Shown here: in pieces, positions 8,175-42,400 of the stretch
Layout: every line of letters begins with the position of its first letter
Position numbering within the stretch: the stretch's first letter is position 1
Virus record (IMG/VR): IMGVR_UViG_3300025711_000006
Strand: one strand, 5' to 3'
Source of the DNA: a virus
Lineage: Duplodnaviria; Heunggongvirae; Uroviricota; Caudoviricetes
Length of the DNA stretch: 64,000 nt
Position numbers and translations under genes: made by a program
Notes under the pieces: model-generated
The model's database searches: none
Seen by the model: only the letters and a program-made list of their open reading frames with translations
What the model was told of the DNA's origin: nothing

Positions 8175-8407
8175 GCCTGCCCCACCCGCTCGAAGTCTTC
8201 ATCGAAGAAGCACAGGTTAACCCTTTGGTCCGAGACATTTACGCCATCACGGTATATGTCGAAGTACACATACACCTCATCTTTGTTGGTGACGACCAGC
8301 TTATCAGTGGTGAGGATGAAGCCTATATCCCTCGCTCTCCACCAGTCATCACCACCAACCCTGTAGGTCTTACCAACTACGGCGGTCTGTGCCGTCCCTT
8401 TAGCCAT
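8150..8407 (-). CDS. hypothetical protein (85 aa)
   Basis: ORF immediately downstream of the integrase. Confidence 0.45.
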   Translation of the reverse strand: MAKGTAQTAVVGKTYRVGGDDWWRARDIGFILTTDKLVVTNKDEVYVYFDIYRDGVNVSDQRVNLCFFDEDFERVGQACKQQPSE

Positions 8408-8422
8408 ATTATCCCCGTGGGT

Positions 8423-10473: not shown

Positions 10474-11217
10474 CTACTTACCGCCCTTCACTGGGTCAGC
10501 GTGTGCGGCCAGTTGCTGGGCTTGTTTACCCTGGGGCAATGGCTTGCCGGTGGCTGGCTTTGCAGCCTCGGGCTTAGCTGGGGGTTTTTCCTGGGCCTTA
10601 GCTGGGGCCGCTGGCTTGTCTTCAGCCTTTGCCGCTGGGGCAGGATCGACCGTGGCCGTTTTCGCTTCCTGGGCGGTTTCCTGGGGCTTTGCAGGGCTAG
10701 GCACTGGGGTAGCTACAGGCGTAGCCGGTGCCTGGGGAGCATCAAAGCTAAGTTGCCCCTGGGCGTCTGCCTTTTCAGTGGCCAGGGCCTTTACCTGGGA
10801 GGCTAGATATTGCTCGGGAACTGGGATTTGCCCCCGGTCATCGGCCTCTAGGCCGTTCAATACGATAGCCCGCAACAGTGCTACGGCATGGTCTGGGCCA
10901 TGGGCCCCCACTACCTGGGCGACCTTGCTATTAGCCAATACGGCATAATAGGAACGCTGCCCGCCAATGCGGTGAATAGCGAACGATGGCGCATATTCAG
11001 CAAAGAATGCTTTGCATTGGTTCCAATCGTCCTGGGGAGCGAACTCCGTTACATTGGTAATTGTGCCGTCATCGTTAAAAATGTAATGGTCTTCTACCGT
11101 CCCCAATACTTCAGCGACGGCATAGGCCAGGGTATCGGCGGCAAGTTCTGAATAGTGAACTTGAACGAACTTAGGCGATTTAGCCGCCTGGGGTTTGGGG
11201 GTTTGTTGTTTTGCCAT
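10474..11217 (-). CDS. hypothetical protein (247 aa) with basic Ala/Pro/Lys-rich tail
   Basis: C-terminal KPAA/AKPE low-complexity tail resembling histone-H1/AlgP-like DNA-binding tails. Confidence 0.55.
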   Translation of the reverse strand: MAKQQTPKPQAAKSPKFVQVHYSELAADTLAYAVAEVLGTVEDHYIFNDDGTITNVTEFAPQDDWNQCKAFFAEYAPSFAIHRIGGQRSYYAVLANSKVAQVVGAHGPDHAVALLRAIVLNGLEADDRGQIPVPEQYLASQVKALATEKADAQGQLSFDAPQAPATPVATPVPSPAKPQETAQEAKTATVDPAPAAKAEDKPAAPAKAQEKPPAKPEAAKPATGKPLPQGKQAQQLAAHADPVKGGK

Positions 11218-11244
11218 TGCTGCGCTTCCTTTGTGGTGAATTCG

Positions 11245-11841
11245 TTATTTGTTCAAATGGCGGATATTGCTATCAGCATCTATCCAGCCCGCCACCCAGT
11301 CATCACACTGGCTTTCATCCAAAGCCACGCATTCACAGCGGGCGTGATACCCGTGGTCATAGGGTTGGCGGTCTTCTAACTCTACGTCACTCTCACAGCC
11401 GGGCGCGTTATCCAGGCTCATCACTGGGGGCAGAATACCCCAAGCCTTACGGCCTTTGGTGAATTTAGCAAACAAGGTTTCACAGTGCGGGCACTGGGTC
11501 AGACTATCCCACGTTTCGCCCTGGGGCGCCGGTAGCGTCTTGATAATCTTTGTACACTTAGGGCAGCTACAAGCTACCAACTTCACGCCCTTAGCCTTGA
11601 GGCGCTTTACCTGGGCCTGATAGGTGGCCGAACGTGGTAGCCCTGCCGGGGTTGGCTTTGCCTCTACCTGGGCCGGTTCCTGGGCGGCTTCTTTATCCAT
11701 ATCGGCTTTAGTCCAATTATAGCCGTTATCGTAACAGCTACCTTGCCAGGAACCTGGGGCATACTTGCCGCTATGAGGTTTACCGGCCAGGGCGTCGGCT
11801 TTCCCCAAGTCGATATAATAGCTAGTGGTTTTAGCGGTCAT
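11245..11841 (-). CDS. Cys-rich hypothetical protein (198 aa)
   Basis: CSCPKC...CPHC; upstream gene TAG stop embedded in CCTAGTAAGG RBS motif. Confidence 0.55.
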   Translation of the reverse strand: MTAKTTSYYIDLGKADALAGKPHSGKYAPGSWQGSCYDNGYNWTKADMDKEAAQEPAQVEAKPTPAGLPRSATYQAQVKRLKAKGVKLVACSCPKCTKIIKTLPAPQGETWDSLTQCPHCETLFAKFTKGRKAWGILPPVMSLDNAPGCESDVELEDRQPYDHGYHARCECVALDESQCDDWVAGWIDADSNIRHLNK

Positions 11842-14511: not shown

Positions 14512-14579
14512 AGCGGCGATTCCTTACTGACTTACAGCCGACCAGGGAAAGGGCCCAGGGTTTCCCCTGGGCGATTTAC

Positions 14580-17738: not shown

Positions 17739-17818
17739 TGCTCCATACTCCGTAACTTTCGGGACTTACTGACTTACTAAAACATGGTACTTCTACGGGC
17801 TTAGCCCCAATTAAGGGG

Positions 17819-18519: not shown

Positions 18520-18554
18520 TACCTTACGTCCTTACCTGGGTTTCTGTTGTGTTA

Positions 18555-25281: not shown

Positions 25282-25665
25282 ATGAGTAAGATTGCACAGG
25301 TAAAGAACATCGAGGCACAGCTCAAAGCCCTTCAGGCACAGCTTGCAGCTCTCCAGGCAGACCCAGAGGTAAAGGCCGACCAAGAGTTCGAAGCAGAGCT
25401 TCGCCAGTTGCTCGCTAAGCACAGTCGCTCCCTGGTCGATGTGAATCGAGTGCTCGACCCCAACTATAAGCCTGCTAAAGCTCCCAAGGTGAATGGAGCT
25501 GGCCCAGGCGTAGCTACCAATCCGAAGCCTAAGCTCCGTACATGGCTCAACCCGCACACTCAGGAAAAGGTCGAGTCTACCCACGGCAATAACAAGGTTC
25601 TGAATGCTTGGCGGCAGCAGTGGGGTAAAGAAGCTGTAGCGAGCTGGAAGTTACCAGACGAGTGA
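25282..25665 (+). CDS. MvaT/MvaU-like H-NS family nucleoid-associated protein (xenogeneic silencer)
   Basis: 127 aa; N-terminal coiled coil (LKALQAQLAALQ) and C-terminal KLRTWLNPHTQEKVESTHGNNKVLNAWRQQWG matching the MvaT DNA-binding domain as I recall it. Confidence 0.75.
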   Translation: MSKIAQVKNIEAQLKALQAQLAALQADPEVKADQEFEAELRQLLAKHSRSLVDVNRVLDPNYKPAKAPKVNGAGPGVATNPKPKLRTWLNPHTQEKVESTHGNNKVLNAWRQQWGKEAVASWKLPDE

Positions 25666-26025: not shown

Positions 26026-26331
26026 TTACACCTCTTCAGGCGTGACTCTCAACTGGGTTTCCATCTGTCCTGGGTTGAACTCGCAGTCAAGCGTGTAGCC
26101 CGCCCGGACCAGCATCGTCATCAGCGTGTCAATGTTGAAGTCTTCTAGCTGGCCCTGCATGAGCCGGTTAACGTCTGCCGCGTCCACGTGCATCTCATTT
26201 GCCGCCAGTTGGTCTGACCACTCCCTTACCCGGATGTGGGTAATGAGCTGCATCCCGAGCTGCGACCTTACCTGCTTCAGGTTGTAGTCAACCGGATCAT
26301 TCGAGAACAGCTTGAATAGGTTCTGCCCCAT
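26026..26331 (-). CDS. XRE-like HTH DNA-binding protein (candidate repressor or antitoxin-type regulator)
   Basis: 101 aa; C-terminal WSDQLAANEMHVDAADVNRLMQGQ...TLMTMLVRAGYTL fits the HTH_XRE pattern; CCCCCTGTGG box at its RBS. Confidence 0.5.
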   Translation of the reverse strand: MGQNLFKLFSNDPVDYNLKQVRSQLGMQLITHIRVREWSDQLAANEMHVDAADVNRLMQGQLEDFNIDTLMTMLVRAGYTLDCEFNPGQMETQLRVTPEEV

Positions 26332-27900: not shown

Positions 27901-28638
27901 ATGAAAATCATCGCAGTAGCAAACGGTAAGGGTGGCGTAGGCAAGACCACCACCACTGCACACGTTGGGGTTAACCTTTTCCAGCGCGGTTACTTCTCCG
28001 CGTTCTTGGACACTGACCCCCTGCTCTCCCTTACTGACTGGTGGGATCTGCGCGAATCGGAAGACCCACAACTGATTTCCTGTGAGCTGAGTAAGCTGGA
28101 TGCAGCTATTGCTCAGCTTGAAGCAGCGGGCGTTGAGTACCTGCTGATTGATACTCCCGGCTTTATGAGCGGTCAGGTCAATAATCTGCTCAAGCGAGCG
28201 GACCTGATTCTGATGATGTCGAAAGCAAGTCCCTTGGACCTGCGAGGCACCATCCGCTCCCTGGACTTCATTGAGGCACAGGGCGTTACACAGCCTATGG
28301 TGTTCGTACTGAATGAAGTACGGAAGGGGACCAAGATCGAGAATGAGTCGATCCTCTCCCTTTCTCAGTTCGGCAAGCTGGCACCCGTTGTTCACTATAA
28401 AGATGCGTTCGTGAGCAGCATGATTAACGGTCATGTGCTGGAAGAAATCGCCAAGAACGACAACCCAGGTATTGCCCAGGTTGACGCACTGACTGAGTAC
28501 GTCCTGGCCCAGCTTGGCGTTAAGGATCCGAAACCTGTTGTCCGCGATGAGCCCGCACCCCAGGCAGGCGCCGAGGTGATTGACCTTGCGTCCAAGCGGG
28601 GTAAGAAGGCAAAAACCTCGGCTAAGCGTAAGGCGTAA
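27901..28638 (+). CDS. parA: ParA/Soj-family partition ATPase (small type Ib ParA)
   Basis: Deviant Walker A KGGVGKTT at N-terminus; 245 aa without N-terminal HTH; GAGG RBS. Confidence 0.85.
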   Translation: MKIIAVANGKGGVGKTTTTAHVGVNLFQRGYFSAFLDTDPLLSLTDWWDLRESEDPQLISCELSKLDAAIAQLEAAGVEYLLIDTPGFMSGQVNNLLKRADLILMMSKASPLDLRGTIRSLDFIEAQGVTQPMVFVLNEVRKGTKIENESILSLSQFGKLAPVVHYKDAFVSSMINGHVLEEIAKNDNPGIAQVDALTEYVLAQLGVKDPKPVVRDEPAPQAGAEVIDLASKRGKKAKTSAKRKA

Positions 28639-29541: not shown

Positions 29542-30036
29542 TCATTCTGCCACTGTTTCTGCCTCTTCCTTCGGCTTCGGTGCGCGTCCTTTCTGAGTCT
29601 TCACCTGCTTTATCTGGTAGTACTTCTTAAAACGGGGCTGGATTTCTTCAAACTTGCCCTTGGCGACAAGCGTGGGGTTAACCATGAACTCTCCGTGACC
29701 GATGCGCCTCAGTACGTCGAGCCCCAGGAGGGCGTTCAAGTAGTTGTTGAAAGTGTTCACCTGAATACCCATCGCTTCACTCATCCTTACCCGCATGCCT
29801 GGGGTGAGGTAGAGCATATTATCGTATTCCATTTTGTGACCGAGATGGTGAACCATGGTCGCATGGTGGGACTTCAACCCCAACTCGGTCATCGCCTCCG
29901 TGTACACCTTCACGAAGGCGGGCTCCTGGGCGAACCTGTATGTGGTTGTCGTCTCTTCGCTCAGAACCTCCCCCGTCTGCTTGTCGATGGTGGTTTTTTC
30001 TGTACGATGTTTGATCGTTTTCGCATTGTTGGCCAT
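29542..30036 (-). CDS. winged-helix DNA-binding protein, RepL-like candidate replication initiator
   Basis: 164 aa; AGGGAG RBS; HTH-like MSEAMGIQVNTFNNYLNALLGLDVLRRIG; family assignment is from memory only. Confidence 0.35.
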   Translation of the reverse strand: MANNAKTIKHRTEKTTIDKQTGEVLSEETTTTYRFAQEPAFVKVYTEAMTELGLKSHHATMVHHLGHKMEYDNMLYLTPGMRVRMSEAMGIQVNTFNNYLNALLGLDVLRRIGHGEFMVNPTLVAKGKFEEIQPRFKKYYQIKQVKTQKGRAPKPKEEAETVAE

Positions 30037-30039
30037 AGC

Positions 30040-30765
30040 TTCGTGCTCCCTCTGGTGGTGGTCAAAATCAGCTAAATCAAGGTACTAGAGGATGCATCTA
30101 GAAATGCTCCCAGGTGCTCAGATGGCGACCCCGATTTTCCTAATGAAATAGCTTACGCTACCTAACCTATATCGGAAAGGCACGTAACCTATTTTATTAG
30201 GGAAAATCGGAAATCGGTAATAAAACCGGGAGGTCGCAAAAGCTTCTTTTCTTTTAGGGCCAGTTTCGGAGGGTTGACACGGTGGGGGATGCGACACTGC
30301 CGCGCTTCGCTTGGCGGCTACGTCCCGTCGCATCGTCCACCCTGGCGCTTCGCTGGGGTGGCCAATCCGCCGTGCCGCAGCTCTCTACACCAGAGGCCAG
30401 CGCCGTGTCAAGAAAAAAGGATTTTACGATTGGGTATTGCGTCGGGTTTCGAACGGGGCTAATCTTTGGCCCAGAAACGACAAAGCCCCTCACGAAGAGG
30501 GGCCTTGAAGTGGCCAAGCGGTGTTACCAGCACCCTAGGCCCGGAGTCGAGGGGAATTCTCAGCTTTAGCAGGCACGGGAATCTCGACTCAGTAGACCCT
30601 ATTATATTAGGGATAGGTCCGTCCTGTCTACTGATTCGCACCCCTACGACACAACTTTTTGCAGGATAAATCCGTCAACCAAACGGGTATTGTCCGCTGT
30701 GTAAGGGGTAATAAACCTTGAAGAATTTCTTCAATGGAATCAGTAACTTAGCGCCTCTGGGCCAA
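30040..30765. other. ORF-poor structured non-coding region (candidate origin or ncRNA)
   Basis: ~115-nt imperfect hairpin 30124-30238 (GCGACCCCGATTTTCCTAAT ... ATTAGGGAAAATCGG ... GGGAGGTCGC); GC-rich 30270-30560 with only short overlapping ORFs in several frames. Confidence 0.4.
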
Positions 30766-31209
30766 CTAGGCACAGAGTTCCAGGCGGATACCCTGGGCCC
30801 GCATAGCACCAAACAGAATATCGGCCACATGGGCTGGATCCTTGGCGACCATCAAACGGCGAATAGGTTCCACACCCGAGATGATTACCCGGCTAGTTGC
30901 CAACCGTTGACGGGAAATGATTCGACCCAACTTGCGGTCGAAGTTATCCGCGAAGGAACAACCCGCAAACCCCACCGCAATCGCCGGTTCTTCAGCAAGT
31001 GCCACTTCAGCACCCAGGGCCTTGGCCACCTCAGTAGGGGTCAGGTACTTGTAAGCCAAAGTTACCCCGCCCTTGTTGTGAATATGATCCCCTCGTTCCA
31101 AGTCCCACACATTCAATCGGATATGTTTGAACCGAACTTCACCGGTTAGCCCCTTCAATGGTGCAGCCAATACGGTGTAACTTTCTTTCGACATTTCTGA
31201 ATTACCCAC
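30766..31209 (-). CDS. hypothetical protein (147 aa), last gene of flotillin operon
   Basis: ORF. Confidence 0.5.
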   Translation of the reverse strand: MGNSEMSKESYTVLAAPLKGLTGEVRFKHIRLNVWDLERGDHIHNKGGVTLAYKYLTPTEVAKALGAEVALAEEPAIAVGFAGCSFADNFDRKLGRIISRQRLATSRVIISGVEPIRRLMVAKDPAHVADILFGAMRAQGIRLELCA

Positions 31210-31340
31210 TTACTTGATTACTCGCTTTTGACGTACTAAAAACTAGTACACTTCTCTCAGGAAACTAGCCGACAATGTTTGGAAAAGTCCCGCACTTCGA
31301 AGTAACGAGACATATTCCGTCGCACTTAGTTGTAAAACTC

Positions 31341-32645
31341 TTACTTGGTGGAAAGGTCTACACTCAGGTCTTTCGCAGCCTTCGCGGCCATGATCTGCAT
31401 CAGTTGACCGATCTCACCTTGGCGGCTCGAACCCTCACTACCGGCCCCACCCATCATGACGCTCGGGACAGGAGCTGTAGCAGCCGCACCGGCCCATGCA
31501 TGGTTGATCTGCACCAGGGCATCGAGCTTGGCTTGCAGGGCGCCGTCAGCGAGGATTACAGCCTTCTTGCGGTAGGCTTCGGCATCGGCAGTGGTCTTGG
31601 TCGCCTTCGCGTCGATTTCAGCCTTATCGAGCAGTTGCTGGGAGGTACGCTTGGCGATGATTGCCTCCTGCTCAGCCTGCTCGGCAGCGGTGATGACCAA
31701 CTTCTTCGCGGTTTCCGCCTCTGTGGTCTTCTCGACCTGGGTACGCAGCGTCTCCTGGCGTTTATCTTCGACCAGACGTTGACCCTTGGCGGTGGAGAGC
31801 AGCTTGGCTTCCTCTTCCTTCAGGCGGTCGGCTCGGGCTACAGCCAGGTCGGCCTGGGCGCTCTGCACCTTCACCATGCGTGCCAGGAACTGGTCATTGG
31901 GCAGGATGTTCGGCACACGTGCCTCTACAACTTCCACACCCATACCGACGAACACTTGCGGCTTGCGAATCTCACGGCCTTTATCGTCAGTCTCTTTCTC
32001 AGTGACGAACGCGGCACGCTTCTGCTCACCATCAGCACCGGCACCGGATACCAACTTATCGCCTTCGCTACGAGTGCTCTCTACGACCTGTTGAACTTCC
32101 TTGCGTTTAACAGCGAACTGGCCGTTACGCAGTTGGTCGTCAAAGTTCGCACTGAATTCAGAGCGGCTACCGGCGAAGTAGTCATCAGCGGTCATCAGAG
32201 AGGCACTAGTTTGCAGAGTCTCTTTAACGGCTGGAACTACGGCGGTCTGCATGAAGTTCTCTGGGGTGCGGTATTCACGCGCAATCTTCAGGAACTGCTC
32301 GCCCTGGGGCATACGGAAGCGGGTCGAGGCTTCGACCTTGCCGTCTACGTTGCCCAGGAAGGTTACACGGTAGTTATCTACGCCCACACCATCGTCAATC
32401 TCACGGCTAGTTTCACCTTCTTTGACGATACTGAATTGCAGGGTTTGAGCCTGCTTCCAGGGCGTAGCTTTACCGAACCACTTGGTGGCGTAGCCAACTT
32501 CGGTAATTACTTTCTCTTCACCAGTAATGGTTCGGATGTGAGTTTGATAGCCTGCTTCGTTGTATACGAAGATGCTATTGAAGGTGCCAACAAGCACCAG
32601 GGCACCGGCTGCAAGGCCAATACCAGCTTTCTGCATGAAGTTCAT
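31341..32645 (-). CDS. SPFH/band-7 (flotillin/YqiK-like) membrane protein with long Ala/Glu-rich coiled coil
   Basis: 434 aa; N-terminal TM (GIGLAAGALVLVGTF), SPFH-like core, then EA-rich heptad region (AEQEAIIAKR...). Confidence 0.75.
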   Translation of the reverse strand: MNFMQKAGIGLAAGALVLVGTFNSIFVYNEAGYQTHIRTITGEEKVITEVGYATKWFGKATPWKQAQTLQFSIVKEGETSREIDDGVGVDNYRVTFLGNVDGKVEASTRFRMPQGEQFLKIAREYRTPENFMQTAVVPAVKETLQTSASLMTADDYFAGSRSEFSANFDDQLRNGQFAVKRKEVQQVVESTRSEGDKLVSGAGADGEQKRAAFVTEKETDDKGREIRKPQVFVGMGVEVVEARVPNILPNDQFLARMVKVQSAQADLAVARADRLKEEEAKLLSTAKGQRLVEDKRQETLRTQVEKTTEAETAKKLVITAAEQAEQEAIIAKRTSQQLLDKAEIDAKATKTTADAEAYRKKAVILADGALQAKLDALVQINHAWAGAAATAPVPSVMMGGAGSEGSSRQGEIGQLMQIMAAKAAKDLSVDLSTK

Positions 32646-32771
32646 TATATTCCTGTCTTACTGACTTACGTTATCTTTCTGACTTACTTTCTTACAGACG
32701 CTTACAATGCCGCACACTATGAAGTACAGCACTGCTACGCCACCAATTACCGCTAGTACATTAGCCACTCA

Positions 32772-33287
32772 TTACCCCGCTGCGATAGGAATCCAATCGG
32801 CAACAGCCTCCTTGAACTTAGTAGGGTGGTGCGCCTCATTACCAGCAAGCCAGAGGCCATAGTTGAATGTTTCACCACCCTGCATTGCTGTTTGATCGTG
32901 ATACGCCTGCCACAACTCCAACTCCCGCTGTGTGATATCGGTCGGGAAAGCATCTGGGAAAGCGTAGGCCACTTGGAAGGCGGTAAGGCCCTCCATCTTT
33001 GGGTCGTACTTTTCATCAGGGATCACACAACCAGCAGCACACATCTGGCCTTCCGAGGTGCGGTATTGGCACCGGCTGGCTTGGGCACCCAGGGCAGGGT
33101 GTTCGGTCGGAACACGCTCAACTGCACGGGCTTTCTGTTTAATCAGGTGCTGCTCAATCTTTTCACGGGAACTAGCGAACATAGATTTTCCGGCGTTAGT
33201 TGCTGCGAAGATAACCGGGGGAAGTTCACTCACACGGATACCGCCTGTTTGGAGCTTACTGAAGGCCACTTTACAGGCTGCGGGCAA
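32772..33287 (-). CDS. hypothetical protein (171 aa)
   Basis: ORF. Confidence 0.5.
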   Translation of the reverse strand: MPAACKVAFSKLQTGGIRVSELPPVIFAATNAGKSMFASSREKIEQHLIKQKARAVERVPTEHPALGAQASRCQYRTSEGQMCAAGCVIPDEKYDPKMEGLTAFQVAYAFPDAFPTDITQRELELWQAYHDQTAMQGGETFNYGLWLAGNEAHHPTKFKEAVADWIPIAAG

Positions 33288-33822
33288 TATCAGCCAGTTG
33301 GCCAGCGGTCATGCCGGTAGAGCGCATCAGGTCTTGCAGGTTGCTAGTCACCTTGCCCACCTGCACCTTGTGATTGCAGGCCACCAGTACCTCCTGGGCC
33401 TCTGCCTGGATAGCACTCAGGCTCATGCCCTTCTCAAGCCACTTGGCGAAGCTCTCACTCAGCTCAGCACGGATCCCGAAGGCCGGGGTATGGGTGCGGT
33501 GAACGACCACAGGAGCGGCCTCAGCCGGGGCCATAGCGCGCATTGGGTAGTCGATACCGGCGACCTTGGCGAAGGCGTTCAAGCGGTAGGTATGGGTCAC
33601 ACGTGGATGGCCATCGCCATCGGTGTAGTCTTCCAAGTCCTGGGCTAGCTGGTTGAGCGTTTCCACCGCGCCGCTATCGAGCAGGGCCTTACACTCAGCA
33701 GCCAGGATCAACTTGTCCTTGGTGCGGAAGGTTGTACCAAAGCCTCGGCGGGGCAGGCCACGGGCTTCAGCCGCGAAGTATTTCTGTGCGAAGGTTTCAA
33801 CTGCTACGGGCAACTTAGTCAA
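33271..33822 (-). CDS. hypothetical protein (183 aa)
   Basis: ORF. Confidence 0.5.
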   Translation of the reverse strand: MTKLPVAVETFAQKYFAAEARGLPRRGFGTTFRTKDKLILAAECKALLDSGAVETLNQLAQDLEDYTDGDGHPRVTHTYRLNAFAKVAGIDYPMRAMAPAEAAPVVVHRTHTPAFGIRAELSESFAKWLEKGMSLSAIQAEAQEVLVACNHKVQVGKVTSNLQDLMRSTGMTAGQLADIARSL

Positions 33823-33954
33823 TGTATTTATTCCGGTCTTTTCGGTTGTACTTGGTCTTGTCCCTATGGGGGACGGACTTATGCTGTTTAGGTAAATTCT
33901 TAGCTACAAAATTGCGGGGAAGAGACTTCTTCTTCTTACCCTTTTTCTTCTTGC

Positions 33955-34272
33955 TCACAGACCTTGCGCCTGTAGCGAAGCAATGAGTGCGTTCCAGTGT
34001 GCATGTGCTGCACTGCGGTACTCTTCAGACTCATAGGGCGTCTCAAATGCGAGAATACCCTTGTGAGCCATGAAGGACTTCAGGAATACATACCCGTCAA
34101 GCGACTTATGCACTGCCGAGCATGCGGCTGTGTACTCTTCATCGGTGATAGCGTTGTGGAACTTGTAATCGCCAATGCAACTACAGAGCCACAAGTTTGG
34201 TATAGCAACCTCGAAGTTGAGGTAGTGGGGGTGCTGTAGTGCAATTTGCAGTACTTCGCTTGGCTTACGCAT
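33955..34272 (-). CDS. hypothetical protein (105 aa), first gene of minus operon
   Basis: ORF. Confidence 0.5.
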   Translation of the reverse strand: MRKPSEVLQIALQHPHYLNFEVAIPNLWLCSCIGDYKFHNAITDEEYTAACSAVHKSLDGYVFLKSFMAHKGILAFETPYESEEYRSAAHAHWNALIASLQAQGL

Positions 34273-34711
34273 TCCGGCTCCGATTCTTACTGACTTACGG
34301 TCTTACGGCCTTACTACCCTGGACGGACCTATTCTATCGGGTCAAATCCGGGCTTGAAAAACTCTGGACGCAACAAAGCCTGATGGTTAATACCTCCATC
34401 AGGCAGCGGACAGACTTGTATTGTGAGATCCCAGACCGGGCGAGTTTGGGGTAAAACAACAACCCGGTTGGGAAATTCCAGTTGGGCTGGGGGCCCTCTG
34501 GTTGTTGAACATGGCGATACGTTCGACGAGGTGCATTCAACCCGATTCATTCCGACAAGTCAATAGGTAGCGAGAAAATTTTCTCGCACACTAAGAACTA
34601 ACGGTGTAATCCAGGCAGGCTGTGGCCTAGACGCTCAGCGGCACTGGTGGCCAGGGGCCGCGTAAGGTAGAATCTCGGACACTTTTAGTAATGCAGATAG
34701 GACGTTAGGCA
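34273..34711. promoter_or_regulatory. divergent control region with operator-like palindromes
   Basis: Perfect 18-bp palindrome GCGAGAAAATTTTCTCGC (34570-34587); 9-bp-stem hairpin 34378-34404; 4 x CTTAC(T/G)G 8-bp repeats 34287-34320; TAGAAT -10-like box upstream of 34712. Confidence 0.5.
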
Positions 34712-34897
34712 GTGAAGCAAATGAGCTGGGCGGGAAAATTCTTTTTCGGGGTGGCACTGGTCATCAGCTTTGTGGCCATCGCGCTGTGCAAGCGGGGCGA
34801 ATGGGCCCTGGGTGCGTTGACGTTCTTCGTCGCTGTGCTGGAGTTCGGCCTGGCCTACAGCTCCACCAAGCTCAACGCTCAGCGGGTGAGGGGATGA
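34712..34897 (+). CDS. small transmembrane protein (61 aa, GTG start)
   Basis: Two hydrophobic helices. Confidence 0.45.
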   Translation: MKQMSWAGKFFFGVALVISFVAIALCKRGEWALGALTFFVAVLEFGLAYSSTKLNAQRVRG

Positions 34898-35055
34898 CTA
34901 AGGCCCTAGCAGGGGCCGTAGCCTTTTGTGCCTGTGTATCCATCTGGGCCCTGGCTGATAACCAACCGTGGGCCAGCTTGCTGTGGGCGTCCCTGGCCTT
35001 CGTCAACTCCCTATCGACCAGCGCCGCGTTCAAGCGTGAGGCCCTAGCGGGATGA
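34894..35055 (+). CDS. small transmembrane protein (54 aa)
   Basis: ATGA overlap with previous stop; MTKALAGAVAFCACVSIWALA... Confidence 0.4.
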   Translation: MTKALAGAVAFCACVSIWALADNQPWASLLWASLAFVNSLSTSAAFKREALAG

Positions 35056-35324
35056 CTGCCGCCCATGTTGAAGCCCTGATGAAGGCGTGCCAGCGGGGAG
35101 AGGTCAAGCTCGATGCGGCTAACAACCTTCTGGCCGACTGCTACGGCGCCCTGGGTAGACTGCTACTGGAGAACCAAGCCTTGCACAAGCAGGTCAAGGT
35201 CTTGCAGTCAGCCGAGAATAGTTACCAGACCGGCTACGACGATGGACGCCGGATGGGAAGCAAAGTGGCCCTCTCTGAGCGGCAGCAACTGAAAAGAGAA
35301 TTAGAGGCCCTTAGAGTCAAATGA
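35052..35324 (+). CDS. small coiled-coil protein (90 aa)
   Basis: ATGA overlap. Confidence 0.45.
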   Translation: MTAAHVEALMKACQRGEVKLDAANNLLADCYGALGRLLLENQALHKQVKVLQSAENSYQTGYDDGRRMGSKVALSERQQLKRELEALRVK

Positions 35325-35331
35325 GAAAAAG

Positions 35332-35655
35332 ATGAGAAAGCGTCTACTTACTATCGGCCTATATCTTGTCTCGGCATGGTGCGGCCTCATTAGCTGGAAC
35401 TGCTTTTACACGGACGACTACCCCCAGGGCGTGATCGGCGGCATTGTGTGCTTTGTGTTCTTCCACATGGCGCAGAAGTTTCGCAAACCAGAAGTTGAGG
35501 CAAAAGACTTGTTCCCAAGCCTCTGCATTGTGTGTGGGATGTTCTTTGCGATGGGTATCCGCTTTGCAATCCAGGGTGATTACACGGGGGCAGGGATGCA
35601 GTTCATTGTCACAGCAGTATGGTTGCGGGCAGCTTGGAAGGTGAAAAACGCATGA
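35332..35655 (+). CDS. transmembrane protein (107 aa)
   Basis: Three hydrophobic segments. Confidence 0.5.
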   Translation: MRKRLLTIGLYLVSAWCGLISWNCFYTDDYPQGVIGGIVCFVFFHMAQKFRKPEVEAKDLFPSLCIVCGMFFAMGIRFAIQGDYTGAGMQFIVTAVWLRAAWKVKNA

Positions 35656-35930
35656 GTTGGTTAAAGGGCAAGAAAGTACTACTGCTGGGCGCTTTCACGA
35701 ACGTTGTGGCGGTCATTTACATTGGGAAAATGGGCGTAGATGCCTGGGAAAGGTGCCAGACTGGCGAAGCCATGCTTGATGCCTGCCTAGTGGCTATGAA
35801 CTTCAGTATTCTGGTGTTCCAGTTTGAGACGCTGCTAACCAACCGACTAGTTGACAAGCGGCATGCCAAGGCCCACGCTGAATCAATGGTTATGCTGTCC
35901 GCTGAAGGCGGCGCCCAGGAGCAGAAATGA
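35652..35930 (+). CDS. transmembrane protein (~92 aa)
   Basis: Probable start MSWLKGKK overlapping previous stop. Confidence 0.45.
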   Translation: MSWLKGKKVLLLGAFTNVVAVIYIGKMGVDAWERCQTGEAMLDACLVAMNFSILVFQFETLLTNRLVDKRHAKAHAESMVMLSAEGGAQEQK

Positions 35931-36229
35931 GCAAAATAAGAGTTCACAACCCCGTAACCGGCGAAGTCCTAGAGTATCCAATCCCTCTTCGGTGGAGCAG
36001 AACGGCAGCAACGCTGATGACCCTCTATGCCCTGGGCCTAACTTGCTTTGCGGGCGTGGCTGCATATAACTTCAAAGTCGAAGACTATGTGACTGGGTTT
36101 CTCTTCACCGTCTTATCTGCTGCGTTGCTCTATGTGATGCGCGACCTGTACAAAGCCGTTCGCCTAGTGAGCAACGTGAACGCCCAGGTAGATGCAATGT
36201 TGAAGCAAGTTGAAGGGCAAGCCCAATGA
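35927..36229 (+). CDS. transmembrane protein (100 aa)
   Basis: ATGA overlap; two TM helices. Confidence 0.5.
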   Translation: MSKIRVHNPVTGEVLEYPIPLRWSRTAATLMTLYALGLTCFAGVAAYNFKVEDYVTGFLFTVLSAALLYVMRDLYKAVRLVSNVNAQVDAMLKQVEGQAQ

Positions 36230-36636
36230 CTGCACGCTACGCCGCCGTGTTCTTCTCGTTCATGACTCTGATCGGATATGCCCTCCGTACTCAGCAGTTA
36301 GACTGGATTTACATCATCACACCGCTAGCTGGTTATACGCTGCATCAGGTAGTCAAGTCAATCAATTCATACCCTAAGAAGTATCGTACACTGAAGACGA
36401 TTAGGGCCCTCATGACGATCTTCCTCATGTTCTTCGTCACGCTCACCATCATGCAGCTCGATGGCGGGTCGATCTGGAAGATTGCCCAGAATGCAATACT
36501 GGTACTTGTATACGCTTTCGTCATTTACAGCAATGGGCGGGTTTACCGGAACGGGCTGGCCATTGACGCTGATATCCAGCGATGGAAAGATGAGATGGCG
36601 GCACGCGAACTGAAGTGGGCTGAGCTGTATAAATAA
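36226..36636 (+). CDS. transmembrane protein (136 aa)
   Basis: ATGA overlap; four hydrophobic segments. Confidence 0.5.
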   Translation: MTARYAAVFFSFMTLIGYALRTQQLDWIYIITPLAGYTLHQVVKSINSYPKKYRTLKTIRALMTIFLMFFVTLTIMQLDGGSIWKIAQNAILVLVYAFVIYSNGRVYRNGLAIDADIQRWKDEMAARELKWAELYK

Positions 36637-36664
36637 AGTCTTAGATAATTAGTGGGGGTCGGTA

Positions 36665-36898
36665 ATGTCGCAGGCAAAGCTACCACGTGGGGATAACGAT
36701 CTAAGAGACTTGGTTGCTTGGGCTAAGGCCCAGGGCTTTTCATGCGATGTATCTAAGGGGCAGCACTTAGTGTTTAGGCGACCCAACACCAAGCCGGTCT
36801 TCGCATCCAATACACCACGATGCACAAGGGCCAGAAAGAACACAATGAGAGACTTGAAGCATGCCCTGCTAGAGTCCCAGCAAAGAGAACTTTCTTAG
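36665..36898 (+). CDS. HicA/YcfA-like small protein (possible toxin-fold RNA-binding protein)
   Basis: 77 aa; LVAWAKAQGFSCDVSKGQHLVFRRPNTKPV resembles the HicA core (GF...kGSH..f..p); no HicB partner seen. Confidence 0.35.
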   Translation: MSQAKLPRGDNDLRDLVAWAKAQGFSCDVSKGQHLVFRRPNTKPVFASNTPRCTRARKNTMRDLKHALLESQQRELS

Positions 36899-36935
36899 AG
36901 GCAATAAAAAAGCCGCCCTATGGGCGGCTTGTCTT
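36898..36935. terminator. bidirectional terminator AGGCAATAAAAAAGCCGCCCTATGGGCGGCTTGTCTTTTGG
   Basis: Hairpin with A-run and T-run; separates plus cluster from the lysis cassette. Confidence 0.7.
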
Positions 36936-37211
36936 TTGGTCGATGAGAATCTTCAGGTATTTATTTGTTGTCTCCTGATTCTCAGATAGGGCTTTGATTC
37001 TTAGGTCAAGTAGGCCGACCATCCTACTCTCTGATAGTTGCAGCTCTGCATGAGAGACTGATTCTTTTTGCAAGGCAGTTACCCGGTCCTCCAGCTTCGA
37101 TATCTCGGTATATTGCCAGGATACAAAGGCCAGGACAAAGGGGAGCATCCACTTGCTGCTAAAGTCCAGCAGGGCTTTACCCACTGTACTCATTTCTCCG
37201 TTATCGGCCAT
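36918..37211 (-). CDS. membrane-anchored coiled-coil protein (97 aa)
   Basis: One TM (WMLPFVLAFVSW) plus coiled coil; last gene of lysis operon. Confidence 0.5.
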   Translation of the reverse strand: MADNGEMSTVGKALLDFSSKWMLPFVLAFVSWQYTEISKLEDRVTALQKESVSHAELQLSESRMVGLLDLRIKALSENQETTNKYLKILIDQKTSRP

Positions 37212-37212: not shown

Positions 37213-37536
37213 TTATTTACTCTTATCTTTCGAAACTGGGAACGTACCGTCTACCCAATTCCTGAATGCCTCAATCTTATCGTTACATCCTTTTCCGATA
37301 AGCAAGTTTCTTGCGTATGCTTTTTCTAGGCCGTGTTCTTCATTCCAGTCCACCATTTCATACTGGCAACCGACCAGTAGATAGCGTGGTACTTGAATGT
37401 CACTTAGAACATCTGTTGTCGGCGGGGAAGGTGGAGCAGAAGGTGTTGTCGAGCAACTGGCGCCACTCAGCATCAGTAGCCCCACCATCACCAGCCCCGG
37501 CATGGCCCGAGAGAGCTTGTGTAGAGCTTGTTTCAT
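37213..37536 (-). CDS. o-spanin-like proline-rich outer-membrane lipoprotein candidate (Rz1-like)
   Basis: Internal start MKQALHKL; signal sequence ending LSGASC then PSAPPSPPTT; overlaps i-spanin in another frame. Confidence 0.45.
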   Translation of the reverse strand: MKQALHKLSRAMPGLVMVGLLMLSGASCSTTPSAPPSPPTTDVLSDIQVPRYLLVGCQYEMVDWNEEHGLEKAYARNLLIGKGCNDKIEAFRNWVDGTFPVSKDKSK

Positions 37537-37915
37537 GGTTAACCCCTGGGGTAGTACTGGCTGAAGCCTTCCGTTGCTGCGAGAGGGCCGTAAAGGACTT
37601 CTCCAGCTCATTCGACTTGCCGTTGAGTTGGTTGAGCGACTGAATGTATTGCTCGCTGGTCTGTGCGTTGTTCTTGTAGTTGTCGCGGAGGACTGAATAG
37701 TCCACAGACATTTGCTGCACCTGGGCCTGGAGCGTGCTTTGTGTAGCCTCCAGCTTAGTTACGTCCTGTTGCAGCGTGGACATTTGCCAGCCCTGCCACA
37801 CCATGAAGGCGACGGCACCCAGCAATAGTCCAAGTTTAATTTTGTTCCAGACGGTCGCTAGAGGCAGCGAACTAACGACTTTAATTAGTGCGTTCATCAG
37901 TAACGTCCTCGGCAC
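37400..37915 (-). CDS. i-spanin-like (Rz-like) protein
   Basis: N-terminal TM then periplasmic coiled coil (TLQQDVTKLEATQSTLQAQVQQ). Confidence 0.55.
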   Translation of the reverse strand: MPRTLLMNALIKVVSSLPLATVWNKIKLGLLLGAVAFMVWQGWQMSTLQQDVTKLEATQSTLQAQVQQMSVDYSVLRDNYKNNAQTSEQYIQSLNQLNGKSNELEKSFTALSQQRKASASTTPGVNHETSSTQALSGHAGAGDGGATDAEWRQLLDNTFCSTFPADNRCSK

Positions 37916-38147
37916 AACTGTGCTGCTTTACTTTATCCAAGTCATCAATCTCCTGATCTAAGAGCTTGCCTATGCCAAACATAATGGCGAACATGAACCC
38001 CCATCCCACCAGCCATGCAACAGCTAGTGTGTCGGTCAGAATTCCAAGTAGCGCTAGTCCGGCCATGGAGATGGCATTCAGGAGGTTGGCGATAAAGGAA
38101 TAGAGGTGGTAGTGACGGCAGAGGTGTTTGTAAAGCTTATTTCTCAT
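37881..38147 (-). CDS. holin/pinholin-like small membrane protein
   Basis: Two TM helices; probable start MRNKLYKH; overlaps 3' end of endolysin. Confidence 0.45.
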   Translation of the reverse strand: MRNKLYKHLCRHYHLYSFIANLLNAISMAGLALLGILTDTLAVAWLVGWGFMFAIMFGIGKLLDQEIDDLDKVKQHSCAEDVTDERTN

Positions 38148-38709
38148 TACCGTAACCCCACGATTGTAGGGTGGTGCGATAGTCTGAGGGTACTTCACCC
38201 ATGCAGTATTCGTATCGCTTTGTGGCTCGAATAACGAGCCCTGGCATCTTCGTCATCACACCATTCACACGACCATAGACCCACCTAGTAAGTTGCTCAC
38301 AGGCGGCGTCATAACGCTTAGCGTTAAGGTTGGTGAGGTAGGTAGATGATGCCACGCTGGTGATGCCCATATGGAAGGTGAAGTCGGTTCCACTTCCCTT
38401 CATCCACTCAGAGCGGTAGGGCACTTTAACCACGTTGTCTAGTTGCTTTTCGTGTGCTACCCAATCTTTGACGAACAGTGCAACGCACTCATCTTCGGTG
38501 TACTCTTTCTTGAGTACTTCACCCTTCCTGGCCATGTGGCCGATGCAGTAGGTTTTAAGTCCGACCGGATCAACATAGACATTCGTGTGAAACCCTTCAG
38601 AGGGCATTGTATGATCGACGGCAATCCAGGCACTAGGTGCGGATACACCGGCAGCAAGTAGGGCAGCAAACACCTTACGCCTAAGCGAACTTGTGATGTT
38701 TACTTTCAT
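38137..38709 (-). CDS. SAR endolysin, glycoside hydrolase family 24 (phage lysozyme)
   Basis: Catalytic triad spacing E-x8-D-x5-T (SEGFHTNVYVDPVGLKT); N-terminal Gly/Ala-rich weakly hydrophobic signal-arrest-release segment. Confidence 0.8.
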   Translation of the reverse strand: MKVNITSSLRRKVFAALLAAGVSAPSAWIAVDHTMPSEGFHTNVYVDPVGLKTYCIGHMARKGEVLKKEYTEDECVALFVKDWVAHEKQLDNVVKVPYRSEWMKGSGTDFTFHMGITSVASSTYLTNLNAKRYDAACEQLTRWVYGRVNGVMTKMPGLVIRATKRYEYCMGEVPSDYRTTLQSWGYGNEK

Positions 38710-39458: not shown

Positions 39459-42400
39459 TTACCAGATTCCCATACGCACTCTTAGTACCCCATCAACAAC
39501 AACTTGAATGCCGTCTTGGTTGAATACAGAGTAAGTATTTGCCCGCGTTGGGTGCCGAGTAATAACGTTCCCGACGTTGAAGTCCTGTGTCATAACAGGG
39601 CCACCCCAGTTGGTCTGGTATGCTGAGTAGATGCCAGAGCCGATGATGGCGTTAGTTACCGTTGCCTTATTGATAAAGGCGTCAGCAATAAACGTTTGAC
39701 CGTTCTGTACAACAAACGGCGAAGTCGCTGTTCCGTTTACCGAGTTGAGAATTGCAAACCGGTCAGCAACAAAGAGCACTTGGCTCTGCATGCCGCTCGG
39801 CGTGTTCTCAATCCCGATACCCATACCGGCACCGTAGTACTGACCGTTTGAGTTCACCGCCAACTTCACACTATAAAGAGCGTTAAGCTTTCCATTCGTA
39901 GAAGACTGGGTAGACGAAAGTGTCGAGATACTAGACGTATGGCTTCCAACCGTACTGGTTAGGCTTGAAATCGACGATGCCTGCGCGGTAATAGTTGAAC
40001 CTTGCTGCGTTACTGTTGTAGCTAACGAAGTCAGGGCGCGGGCACTAGGCCCTGCAACAAACGGTGAAGGTGTAGTACCATCCACAACTTGTTTTTCCAC
40101 CATGATGGAATCGACGGTCAAGTTTGCACTTGCTGCACCATTGATATTCGGGTAGATCAAGAGTGAAACTTTTGCTCTTGTGGGGACTGTGATAATCCCT
40201 GATTGCCGAGTACGTGTAGTGGTGAAGTTGACTGCAATTTGCCGAGATGTAGTCATGTCGTACAAGTTGAACAGCGCCTGACCGGCAGTAGTGCCTCGCA
40301 TGTACATGGAAACAATGTAGTTTCCAGGCTCTAACGTCATGTTCGTTGCTGCTGTGTTGGTGGCGGACGCAAGGTAGAGGGCTGCATAAGTGTTACTGCT
40401 GCCTGTCGCTACCAAGTTAATCCCGTAACCTGAATCCGAGCCCGCAACGGCCACCCCAGTCGCTGTCAAGCCGCTTGGAACCACAGGCGGCAAGGTCGTG
40501 GAAGTCAACCAGCTATACTCATCACTCAGCAGGTTAGTACCAGTGCCTCCAATCCCGTTGAGGGAGTTAGTCAAACTGGTGATGCTACTGGATGCACTTG
40601 TTAGAGCACCTTCCGTAGAAGTTACGCGGTTGGTTAGTGCAGTCAATGCGGTAGCTTGGGCCGATACGGCACTTGCACTTGGGCCTGCAACAAACGGGCT
40701 AGCCGTTGTTCCTGGGCCTGTCTGCTTCTCAACCATCACGGAGTCAACAGTTACTTCCTGGCCGCTCACGCCGCTCATGTTGTAGTAGAACAACACAGCC
40801 ATTGTGCTTGGAGCCCCAATGGTTACGGTGTGGCTGTAACGTGTCCGAGTGGAAGTTACAGTCTGTGCTACTGAATACGCACTTGTCGTAGTTGAATACA
40901 GACGCATACGCACAGATGCAGTGGTTGGGGTTGAAGCGTAGAACGACACAATGTATGTGCCCGCTTCAATTGGCATGTTGAACCCGGCTACGTTGTTGGT
41001 AGGGCAGAGCATCAAGTAGCAGCCCGTCGAGGTGCTAGTTGAAGTCATCTTGTATCCGAAGCCTGAAGCAGACCCAGACACAGCTACACCAACAGTAGTA
41101 GTTGCACTACCGTTCGTTGTCGGCAACGCTACGGAAGTTAGCCAGCTATACTCATCTCTGAGCAAGTTGTTACCCGAGCCAGAGATTCCGCCAACTTGGT
41201 TTTGCAACGTCGTTACCGAAGAGCCCTGGGAAGTGATATTCCCTTCAGCAGTGGTTACACGTGACGTTAGAGCAGCGAGAGCAGAGCTATCGGCCTTGTT
41301 CGCCACTGTGTTGGTCAAGCTGGTGATCGAGGTGCCTTGACTTGTAATTGTCCCTTCCGCCGATGTTACTCGGGTATCCAGGGCAGACAGAGCCGTAGCT
41401 TGTGCTGAGTCCTGGGCGGCACGTTTACGAATCACAGGTGACGATACAAACACATCACTAGCGTTGCCCGCTGATACACGGAAGCACATCGCAATGCGGA
41501 TAACACCGGCTGGAATAACACGTGTTCCAGTCAGCTTCGTCCAAGTCGCAGCGGTGCTAGTCAGGCGCACACCGTCACCGCTTGCAGCCACCCAATCATG
41601 AGTGATCGAAGTACCGGCAGCGTCGTACATCTGAATCCAGATACCTACTTGGCGAGAGGCGCTTGTGTAAGCGTACATCTCGAAGTCGTATGTATCACCA
41701 GCCGCAACAACCATGTTATGAGTAACACCGGTTTCTGGAGCCTTGACGTTTGGAGTTACGATGAACCCCATGTACAAGTTGCTTGCACCTGTTGCTAGAG
41801 CCCACTTCAGTACCCGAGCGCTTGGGGATCCATCTGGTACACCGGCATCTGATCGAGCAACAACGGTAACAGCAGATTGGTTAGTGCCGTGACCAGCCGA
41901 GAACGTCGGGTCATTGACCAAGTTGTCTGTAGCAACCGAGCCAACACTTGATTGCAGGCTGGTAATCGAAGTGCCCTGGCTAGTGATCGTACCTTCTGCA
42001 TTTGTAACGCGGTTGGTTAGAGAACTTAGCGCCGTAGACTGTGCTTCGACTTGGCGAGCACTATTACCAACACTGAATGTGCTTGGCTCTGTACCAGTAC
42101 CAATCTGTTCTTCCAGCATGAAGCCGTCGTAGATGTGTGAGCTAGTTCCCGCAGTAGCGTTCTGGAAGACAAGGATCTGTGCATCACCCGCCACTGCTGC
42201 TGGAGTTGTAATCACCGCACTTACGCGGGTCCAGGTTGTGGTCACAGGCACTGTAGCTACTGCTACCTCTACAAATGATCCTGCTGCGTTTTTATAACGA
42301 AGGCGCAACTGTGAAGTCCTTGCCGCATCACCTTGAACCCAGAACGACATAATGTAGTTCTTAGTCGGCTTCAATTTCAGTGGGCAATCAGTTGAGGATG

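Follow-up and report, generated by a model that had tools for sequence, protein, structure and literature searches.

Does a phage that encodes a flotillin-like SPFH protein back to back with a battery of small membrane proteins carry a single membrane-based device, or do two neighbouring units merely share a stretch of DNA? The question is raised by positions 30,766 to 36,898 of IMG/VR record IMGVR_UViG_3300025711_000006, a 64,000-nucleotide (nt) stretch of caudoviricete DNA that is referred to here in its full length as the window. A leftward operon encoding a 434-amino-acid (aa) SPFH/Band-7 protein diverges at this locus from a rightward cluster of small open reading frames (ORFs) that ends in a HicA-like gene. 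A preliminary description, made from the letters alone, regarded the whole as a moron or defence-type cassette for exclusion or abortive infection. The features on which it was built, namely the ORFs, the ATGA overlaps, the 18-bp palindrome, the 9-bp hairpin and the CTTAC repeats, are all present, and the locus does lie between the lysis genes and the ParA gene (Table 1). The analysis nevertheless leads us to another reading, which we hold with moderate confidence: the locus would comprise two adjacent but separable units, and the SPFH protein would form an inner-membrane cage of the HflK/C or flotillin type that serves the phage's own cycle.

The 434-aa protein does belong to the SPFH superfamily. 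The only Pfam domain that it matches is Band_7 (PF01145; 37.2 bits against a cut-off of 23.6, E=4e-9), and it aligns over its full length with phrog_11908 (E=2e-63, profile positions 1-426 of 430). A hydrophobic segment is found at the N terminus (residues 9-27). In an AlphaFold2 (AF2) model obtained with 33 homologues (predicted local distance difference test, pLDDT, 74), a helix (residues 3-25) is followed by a mixed alpha/beta region (26-249), by an uninterrupted helix of 140 residues (251-390) containing 22% Ala and 9% Glu, and by a C-terminal helix (409-431). Domain and model together bear out the earlier assignment of a protein anchored by a transmembrane (TM) helix and carrying a long coiled coil. 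Searching the PDB with this model by Foldseek returned SPFH or vault cage proteins for all of the top 45 matches (E 1e-8 to 1e-5, 9-16% identity), the best including HflK/C (7vhq), prohibitin (8rrh), erlin, vault, QmcA, flotillin and stomatin. The flotillin structures 9l3g and 9bq2 rank 27-41 in this list, and the anchor of the phage protein resembles a single TM helix. At the sequence level, neither phmmer nor a 33-sequence profile matched any PDB entry, and no NCBIfam HflK/C family was matched.

By these comparisons the phage protein would be a cage builder, though one set apart from the best-known of them. As in the HflK/C-FtsH, prohibitin, erlin, stomatin, flotillin and QmcA-YbbJ cages, a TM anchor, an SPFH domain, a long wall helix and a C-terminal cap region follow one another in the same order. 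Unlike HflK/C, the protein provides a single type of protomer and not a K/C pair (tblastn across the whole window returned no second SPFH paralogue, only the SPFH gene itself), and its wall helix, with the length found in flotillins, is about twice as long. It also differs from the products of SPFH-NfeD operons (QmcA-YbbJ, YqiJK, FloA/FloT) in having no NfeD partner: none of the operon proteins matched NfeD in Pfam, PHROG or NCBIfam profiles, no neighbour recurs across the contexts of the gene, and the 32-52-aa peptides encoded upstream are too short to hold an OB domain.

On the reading that we favour, the N-terminal helix would anchor the protein in the inner membrane, and the 140-residue helix would drive oligomerisation into an HflK/C- or flotillin-like cage around a patch of membrane. 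Such a cage could hold or shield a membrane client, for example an FtsH-type protease or phage membrane proteins, or could keep the membrane intact until lysis. It would act for the infection cycle of the phage that encodes it and not for the exclusion of other phages, and a micropeptide encoded just upstream, described below, would be its most likely partner.

A more specific version of this chemistry of membranes would have the cage capture or modulate the host FtsH, stabilise phage regulators or small membrane proteins and bias the choice between lysis and lysogeny or the maintenance of a plasmid. HflKC-FtsH control of lambda CII is established (cited in PMC13086221), and the best structural matches of the phage protein include HflK/C both alone and with FtsH (7vhq, 9paw, 9cz2, 7wi3). 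The single N-terminal TM helix, with K6 on its N-side, would suggest an HflK/C-like type II orientation, and the many small membrane proteins encoded next door are typical FtsH substrates. We nonetheless regard this role as unlikely, given a single gene with neither a K/C pair nor a paralogue in the window, no HflK or HflC match among PDB sequences and a flotillin-like wall. Moreover, the SPFH family also occurs in strictly lytic phages, as shown below, and a lysogeny decision therefore cannot be its general role.

Where the gene occurs carries most of the argument about its function. A search of 5.8 billion protein clusters at E<=1e-20 yielded 377 SPFH homologues, and all those listed carry PF01145; about 40 of them, at 62-91% identity, lie on contigs of 98-108 kb. 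The 107,073-bp ENA metagenome contig ERZ27252354:k141_90731 encodes the window protein residue for residue. The element that carries the window is probably a siphovirus or phage-plasmid of ~107 kb with a Pseudomonas-like host, because its nearest cultured phage and all 64 phage homologues of the neighbouring gene g97 belong to Pseudomonas phages. The closest cultured phage is the Pseudomonas phage vB_PpS_SYP, whose head protease is 53% identical. DNA nearly identical to the 6.2-kb region was found in neither the phage nor the plasmid collections.

All eight related genomes of ~105 kb contain the SPFH gene, which at 67-90% identity is the best-conserved gene of its arm, and the same synteny is seen in L006, L007, L008, L014, L015, L017 and L018. 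When loci were retrieved through g97, and hence independently of SPFH, the gene was again present in all four that were informative. The window, L006, L007 and L008 have a common gene order of tail, lysis genes, g97, a small-gene cluster on the opposite strand, g105, g47, g183, g15x, SPFH, g147, rep, ParA and MvaT, along which conservation is very uneven. The SPFH protein is 90, 70 and 78% identical to those of L006, L008 and L007, respectively, as against 29-61% for its operon partners, 27-42% or an undetectable level for the small-TM genes, and 28-46% or outright replacement for the rep and par genes. The lysis genes and g97 reach 67-94% identity with L006 and L008, and 46-71% or an undetectable level with L007. 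Since SPFH is far more conserved than its operon partners and the small-TM genes, it forms an island of purifying selection within a fast-moving arm. The variable presence expected of a moron is found in the rightward cluster and not in the SPFH operon. The SPFH gene, like its operon, is thus core to this phage family rather than a moron, and the operon proteins g105, g183, g171, SPFH and g147 are all without a match in PADLOC-DB v2, so that the defence-hotspot reading is not supported for this operon.

The same family extends well beyond these genomes. By tblastn, homologues aligning over >90% of their length at 25-41% identity are encoded by the Pseudomonas phages Milchi and Astolliot (41%), by Alishewanella phages (35%), by Sinorhizobium phage phiN3 (33%) and by T5-like Vibrio phages such as pVp-1 (25%). 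The phiN3 protein gp385, annotated as 'membrane protease subunit stomatin/prohibitin', belongs to the same family, phrog_11908, as the window protein; the carriers of that family are large lytic phages, whereas the window derives from a phage-plasmid of temperate type. Pseudomonas megaplasmids of ~1 Mb carry the family at 47-60% identity. In the T4-like contig L009 (Logan ERR13925545, 108.5 kb; positions 6632-11323), a 62%-identical SPFH gene lies directly downstream of rIIA (755 aa) and rIIB (PF26926), with a T4-type spanin 2 kb beyond it. In L002 and L020 the SPFH copy (64-69% identity) comes after ribonucleotide reductase genes, with spanin or endolysin genes 1-3 kb away, and another copy sits ahead of a RecA/UvsX-like gene. 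A scan of genome contigs with the SPFH protein gave a single, distant match in Schekmanbacteria. An all-against-all comparison of the flanking ORFs revealed no neighbour common to unrelated SPFH contexts, and no divergent small-TM gene accompanies SPFH outside the ~105-kb family.

On the Pseudomonas alcaligenes chromosome, a 57%-identical SPFH gene (P0084) stands in the order cysS-glnS-ppiB-lpxH-SPFH. This is the context of PaFlo9 (P. aeruginosa PA14_41420), a monocistronic SPFH gene next to ppiB-lpxH and without NfeD, whose patchy distribution has been ascribed to horizontal transfer and whose knockout phenotypes are only subtle (PMC13086221). Both are single SPFH genes lacking NfeD, and through its P. 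alcaligenes homologue we infer that the window protein is of the PaFlo9 type. The difference is one of setting, as the window gene is a core phage gene within an operon, and the chromosomal copy has no upstream micro-ORF. The phage and megaplasmid copies found here fit the published account of horizontal transfer (PMC13086221). Judged from its distribution, the SPFH gene appears to have passed horizontally between large lytic phages (T4-like, T5-like and others), Pseudomonas megaplasmids and Pseudomonas chromosomes, in some cases solo and in others together with the micropeptide gene that abuts it. It is improbable that a gene which both lytic phages and the host make use of would generally be a device for prophage defence. 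SPFH proteins have figured in phage annotations for twenty years, as in T4-like phages (PMC1524935), and phage GIB1 encodes a separate SPFH-domain lipoprotein (PMC13239085); a search of the literature turned up no work on what such a protein does in a phage.

The most likely partner of the SPFH protein is encoded by a 36-aa micro-ORF immediately upstream. Its predicted product consists of one TM helix and a charged tail; its stop codon lies 12 nt ahead of the SPFH ATG, and GTAAG repeats occupy its 3' part. Window positions 32768-32706 are matched by a 42-aa ORF that was called in L007 just upstream of SPFH, and homologues with the same start position are found in 8/8 genomes of the family. A sequence resembling a Shine-Dalgarno (SD) motif, GGAG or GAGG, stands 6-10 nt upstream of the start in six of the seven genomes checked, and the window has GGGG. 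Over 22 ungapped codons, the proportion of nonsynonymous differences (pN) is 0.32 and that of synonymous differences (pS) is 0.63, which gives a pN/pS of ~0.5. Single-TM ORFs of 32-52 aa also abut SPFH genes in pVp-1 (1-nt gap), L020 (0 nt), L026 (4-nt overlap) and L027 (37 nt), and Milchi has no such ORF. The arrangement thus recurs in 5/13 independent SPFH lineages, whereas at most 3.8% of the remaining ORFs with a length of 150 aa or more in these sequences are preceded in this way (binomial p ~8e-5, a rough test). The preliminary description had suggested looking for SPFH plus small-TM neighbourhoods elsewhere. The divergent cluster is never found with SPFH outside the family, and this abutting micro-ORF, a different pairing from the one proposed at the time, is the one connection between SPFH and a small TM protein for which the genomes provide support.

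It is tempting to go one step further and to consider SPFH and its abutting 32-52-aa single-TM micropeptide as a minimal two-gene cage module, with the micropeptide standing in for NfeD. The module would be exchanged horizontally among very different phages, from temperate phage-plasmids to T5-like and other large lytic phages, and would control inner-membrane integrity or a membrane protease during infection, with an rII-like part in counter-defence or lysis timing. This generalisation is speculative, and we give it a low probability. The rII-like function can also be considered by itself: the SPFH cage and the micropeptide would stabilise the energised inner membrane, and so prevent premature lysis or counter a depolarising abortive-infection (Abi) system. 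It is doubtful that this is the role of the protein, even though an SPFH gene directly follows rIIA-rIIB in the T4-like contig, since that adjacency was found in one context only and the chromosomal and megaplasmid copies have no obvious tie to phage infection. The subtle knockout phenotypes of PaFlo9 (PMC13086221) likewise offer little encouragement, whereas the occurrence of the family in lytic phages, the strong purifying selection within the ~105-kb family and the presence of spanin or endolysin genes within 1-5 kb of SPFH in the window, L002, L009, L020 and Milchi (a proximity stated with no background comparison) would all accord with such a function.

Several points weigh against our preferred reading, that of a cage serving the phage's own cycle beside an unrelated cluster. 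The choice between the phage's own cycle and defence is argued from distribution only. Core superinfection-exclusion genes exist, so core status is compatible with exclusion. The divergent promoters and the unique perfect palindrome could co-regulate both units, and the two units are always adjacent within the family, which whole-genome synteny explains without proving that the adjacency is irrelevant. The TM anchor is a prediction from the hydrophobic segment and the AF2 model, and orthology to PaFlo9 was taken from the synteny of a 57%-identical homologue and not from a direct comparison with PA14_41420. As for the micropeptide, the likeness between lineages is architectural only (25-31% identity), no micro-ORF precedes SPFH in 8/13 lineages, the copies on the chromosome and on megaplasmids among them, and both the count of 13 lineages and the background test are rough.

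The rightward cluster has a very different character. It comprises ORFs of 61, 53, 90, 107, 92, 100, 136 and 77 aa, linked by five exact ATGA overlaps; the GC content at third codon positions exceeds that at second positions in every one of them, and the first seven were all called by the assembly gene caller. The coupling announced in the preliminary description is therefore real, but its count of seven to eight small TM proteins has to be lowered, as hydrophobic segments of at least 19 residues occur in six of the seven small proteins, and the exception, the 90-aa product, is predicted to be soluble and to form a coiled coil. Counterparts in relatives are easily recognised for no more than three of the ORFs, tm107, tm100 and the HicA-like one (27-61% identity); between relatives the cluster as a whole is 24-45% identical or undetectable, its length varies between ~1.1 and 2.8 kb, and its gene order differs from one relative to another. 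Even in the 5.8 billion clusters, tm100 has just three homologues, and a scan of IMG/VR with the single protein tm136 gave no match. The small TM proteins match no Pfam, PHROG, NCBIfam or PADLOC family beyond weak and probably compositional similarities (KwaA 8e-3, MspA, LIC10906, ThsA 4e-3). Taken together, these traits describe real, fast-evolving and mosaic accessory genes, for which host interaction and superinfection exclusion are candidate functions. Small membrane proteins of phages that act in exclusion or otherwise on the membrane include T4 Imm and Sp, lambda RexB and SieB, and T4 rI and rIII, and offer a lead. The cluster proteins resemble them in being small, accessory and fast-evolving, in having 1-3 TM segments and in lying near lysis or early regions, but resemble none of them in sequence or in profile searches.

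The last ORF of the cluster, missed by the assembly gene caller and present in 6/8 relatives, is best described as encoding an orphan protein of the HicA superfamily. Its own match to Pfam HicA_toxin (E=1.2e-3) scores 19.4 bits, below the threshold of 27, alongside matches to the PADLOC HicA-like profile (1.9e-4) and to phrog_2089 (7e-8). A single-sequence AF2 model (pLDDT 77) predicts the alpha-beta-beta-beta-alpha order of HicA (H13-22, E26-30, E34-38, E44-48, H58-76), and among 350,000 PDB chains the top matches were the HicA structures 6g26, 1whz and 4c26, at TM-scores of 0.5-0.63 and E-values of 0.2-2 that are not significant. An exhaustive HMMER scan collected 50 relatives, of which 45 were aligned; a word-indexed homologue search with the ORF had returned no match. 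HicA_toxin is matched independently by 18/45 of these relatives at E<=0.01 (best 2e-6), the family profile finds 1whz as its best PDB match with the G-x-H motif aligned, and His34 of this motif is at least 90% conserved. The fold, the histidine and the relatives thus uphold the HicA-like label given earlier, although the protein itself remains below the Pfam gathering score. It further departs from HicAB systems in that no HicB is encoded next to it, the terminator following after 12 nt and tm136 preceding it, in the replacement of the histidine by Lys in two close relatives (L006 and L008), and in its occurrence in Milchi and Astolliot, both lytic, where >130 kb separate it from SPFH. The same two relatives, L006 (4886-5107) and L008 (4852-5073), carry a conserved 73-aa ORF that shares 4 nt with the end of the HicA-like gene, has no PHROG match and is absent from the window.

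It is against this background that the single-device proposal has to be judged, in which the products of the SPFH operon would act with the small TM proteins and the HicA-like protein as one membrane-based moron for superinfection exclusion or abortive infection. Because SPFH is a core gene and the best conserved of its arm, recurs in lytic phages and at a housekeeping chromosomal locus, and is not accompanied by divergent small-TM genes outside the family, we consider such a device very unlikely, whatever the appeal of a common divergent control region with its unique palindrome and of a bidirectional terminator that insulates the right side. The small-TM genes do evolve as fast and as mosaically as arms-race genes would, within an arm that is variable even in rep and par, but the operon proteins match nothing in PADLOC; and the toxin-type fold of the HicA-like protein is offset by the missing HicB and by its presence in Milchi and Astolliot far from SPFH. 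Also very unlikely, in our opinion, is the idea that the rightward cluster extends the adjacent lysis cassette with holins, antiholins or regulators of lysis timing, since for all their closeness to the lysis module (300 bp) and their holin-like size with 1-3 hydrophobic segments, these genes converge on the lysis genes across a bidirectional terminator, match no PHROG lysis family and are mosaic over ~1.1-2.8 kb next to lysis genes that are 67-94% conserved.

A divergent promoter region of 439 bp serves both units, which would reflect the layout of the genome. The perfect palindrome within it (at about -43 to -60) stops 6 bp short of the -35 box of a putative promoter toward g105; L006 and L008 keep only the half-site ATTTTCTC, and L007 has ATTTTCT-N12-AGAAAAT. 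The palindrome could serve as an operator, as an activator site or as an UP-like A/T tract. The possibility that it represents one site of a repressor regulon was rejected, as the rest of the window shows no enrichment of the half-site. The promoter-like block itself has the same arrangement in L006 and L008, is near consensus in L007 (TTGACA-16-TAGAAT) and is followed by a conserved initial transcribed block; its -10 box is poor in 3/4 genomes, and the promoter scan missed TTGACT-17-TTGAAT because the -10 element has no A at position 2. Further down the leader, a hairpin is followed by TTTGTTG. With its flanks (~60 nt) it is identical in L008, whose SPFH protein is 70% identical, and it is absent from L006; the T-rich segment and the conservation in L008 together suggest an attenuator-like leader element.

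The CTTAC repeats upstream of g105 are present in the control region as the preliminary description had it, but are not specific to it. On the minus strand, the GTAAGTCAGTAAG motif (GTAAG-N3-GTAAG) is found at 14523-14534, 17765-17776, 18520-18535, 32657-32712 and 34285-34314. There are four exact 12-mers, each upstream of a minus-strand gene, and 18 hits with at most two mismatches as opposed to 4.1 expected. Throughout the window, the motif stands 10-27 nt ahead of the start codons of at least five minus-strand genes, SPFH among them, and its 8-nt period puts TAA in all three frames. It is absent from the L006, L007 and L008 loci examined, and could be a leader element, a promoter or a protein-binding site. 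With regard to the bidirectional terminators said to flank the locus, the one on the right has a 9-bp stem with seven GC pairs and T-runs on both strands, whereas the one on the left (30507->30481) is unidirectional, lies 260 nt past the last gene and stands behind a separate promoter-like site.

The leftward operon had been described as having five genes; it contains six conserved ORFs in addition to the uncalled 36-aa TM micro-ORF, and appears to be a conserved part of the phage backbone, made of g105, a 47-aa basic ORF, g183, g171, the micropeptide, SPFH and g147. The 47-aa ORF (MSKKKKGKKKKSLPRNF...) is extremely Lys-rich and, at 73-90% identity in 8 relatives, comes second in conservation within the operon; it has a weak match to DUF7230 (E=6e-4). 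A match to phrog_17693 (E=4e-15) was obtained for g171, whereas g105, g183 and g147 match no family in Pfam, PHROG, NCBIfam or PADLOC, and a scan of IMG/VR with the single protein g183 was likewise without a match. The g147 gene directly follows SPFH in L006, L008, L014, L015 and L017 and lies further downstream in L007. A pairing of g147 with SPFH across phages, suggested by a GGxTLxYK...CxxxDxxxRKxG motif also present in an L002 ORF, was dropped, as it amounted to a single pairwise E=0.002 that tblastn did not recover.

Beside rep, between g147 and repL, lies a structured noncoding element that is 84-95% identical in 7/7 relatives, even where the replication gene differs (RepL or HTH_36). 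It folds into a long and a short hairpin, each capped by GCGAAGC, with 29 predicted pairs and 97% of the aligned cells paired. Eight pairs show double-sided compensatory changes, as compared with 2.5+-1.1 in shuffled alignments (0/500) and at most three in slid controls, and the G-U pairs favour the minus strand. No Rfam family was found in the 28.5-38 kb region. The sequence d(GCGAAGC) is the hyper-stable mini-hairpin of the phiX174 and G4 origins. The element is a candidate replication origin, single-stranded DNA initiation site or copy-control RNA. Next to it on the minus strand (30472-30630), a promoter-like TAGACA-18-TATAAT (11/12 matches, 30630->30601) is followed by the strong left-hand terminator. 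The candidate small RNA of ~124 nt so delimited (minimum free energy -52 kcal/mol, z=-3.6) falls within 380 nt of noncoding sequence with 72-79% identity to L006, L008, L014, L015 and L017, and the ORF called at 30282-30569 (+) is probably spurious. The replication gene itself is swapped between relatives: RepL is encoded in the window, L007, L014, L015, L017 and L018, and an HTH_36 protein occupies the same place in L006 (12710-13276) and L008 (12728-13318).

On the other side of the locus, g97 is 68-93% conserved within the ~105-kb family and sits at the end of the lysis cassette. Its 64 phage homologues come from Pseudomonas phages only, including KPP10/PB1-like myoviruses, and the protein may be an unrecognised lysis-associated protein. 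The window also holds a gene of tape-measure size and a gene for a 3853-aa J-type tail protein (39459-51020, minus strand). This tail protein joins GpJ-type FNIII, Phage-tail_3 and tail-tip domains; the corresponding proteins have 2851 aa in L006 and 3828 aa in L008.

Table 1 Position of genes and sequence elements in the 64,000-nt window (percentages are amino acid identities)
Feature	Position	Strand	Remarks
MvaT-type DNA-binding protein	25282-25665		
HTH protein	26026-26331		
ParA	27901-28638		
RepL	29542-30036		
Structured noncoding element	30299-30381	-	between g147 and repL
g147	30766-31209	-	last operon gene; 147 aa from GTG, or 142 aa from ATG 31194; 42-61% in relatives
SPFH/Band-7 protein, 434 aa	31341-32645	-	N-terminal TM helix, SPFH domain, wall helix, C-terminal helix
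Micro-ORF, 36 aa, single TM (MANVLAVIGGVAVLYFIVCGIVSVCKKVSQKDNVSQ)	32658-32768	-	GTG 32768 to TAA 32658; uncalled
g171, Cys-containing	32772-33287	-	TTG start gives 171 aa; the called start, GTG 33233, gives 153 aa; 46-59% in relatives
g183, 183 aa	33271-33822	-	27-54% in relatives
47-aa Lys-rich ORF	33815-33958	-	GTG start; GTGA overlap with g105; missed by assembly gene caller
g105, 105 aa	33955-34272	-	first operon gene; 29-55% in L006, L007, L008, L015, L016, L018
Divergent control region, 439 bp	34273-34711		
Four GTAAG-N3 repeats (CTTAC, 8-bp period)	34285-34314	-	directly upstream of g105 SD
Hairpin, 9-bp stem, then TTTGTTG	34378-34404	-	leader of leftward operon
Putative promoter-like block toward g105	34535-34563	-	TTGACT (34563-34558), 17 nt, TTGAAT (34540-34535)
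Perfect 18-bp palindrome GCGAGAAAATTTTCTCGC	34570-34587		0.01 expected by chance
tm61, 61 aa, 2 hydrophobic segments	34712-34897	+	first in cluster; GTG start; homologue (45%) in L014 only
tm53, 53 aa, hydrophobic	34894-35055	+	ATGA overlap; no homologue found
cc90, 90 aa, soluble coiled coil, no TM	35052-35324	+	no homologue found
tm107, 107-aa membrane protein	35332-35655	+	27-31% to 121-aa proteins of L006, L008; also L014, L016
tm92, 92 aa, 2 hydrophobic segments	35652-35930	+	weak match to 90-aa protein of L008 (E=7e-5, small database)
tm100, 100-aa membrane protein	35927-36229	+	~40% in L006, L008, L014
tm136, 136-aa membrane protein	36226-36636	+	weak matches to 145-aa protein of L006 and in L015 (24%)
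HicA-superfamily protein, 77 aa	36665-36898	+	
Bidirectional intrinsic terminator	36910-36930		between HicA-like gene and convergent g97
g97	36918-37211	-	N-terminal TM segment and coiled coil; phrog_4172
Lysis genes	37213-38709		
Rz-like spanins	37213-37915		
TM protein	37881-38198		phrog_21126
Phage lysozyme/endolysin	38137-38709		

The cassette is not a new kind of system. Its SPFH gene joins a known phage family, and what is new are two minor observations, the association with the micro-ORF and the structured element beside rep. The analysis removes a tempting but unsupported annotation as a defence system and replaces it with a single SPFH family that is common to unrelated lytic and temperate phages, megaplasmids and Pseudomonas chromosomes. 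The SPFH protein and its micropeptide would thereby provide a concrete pair for asking what SPFH cages do, with pVp-1 and Milchi as cultured carriers of the family.

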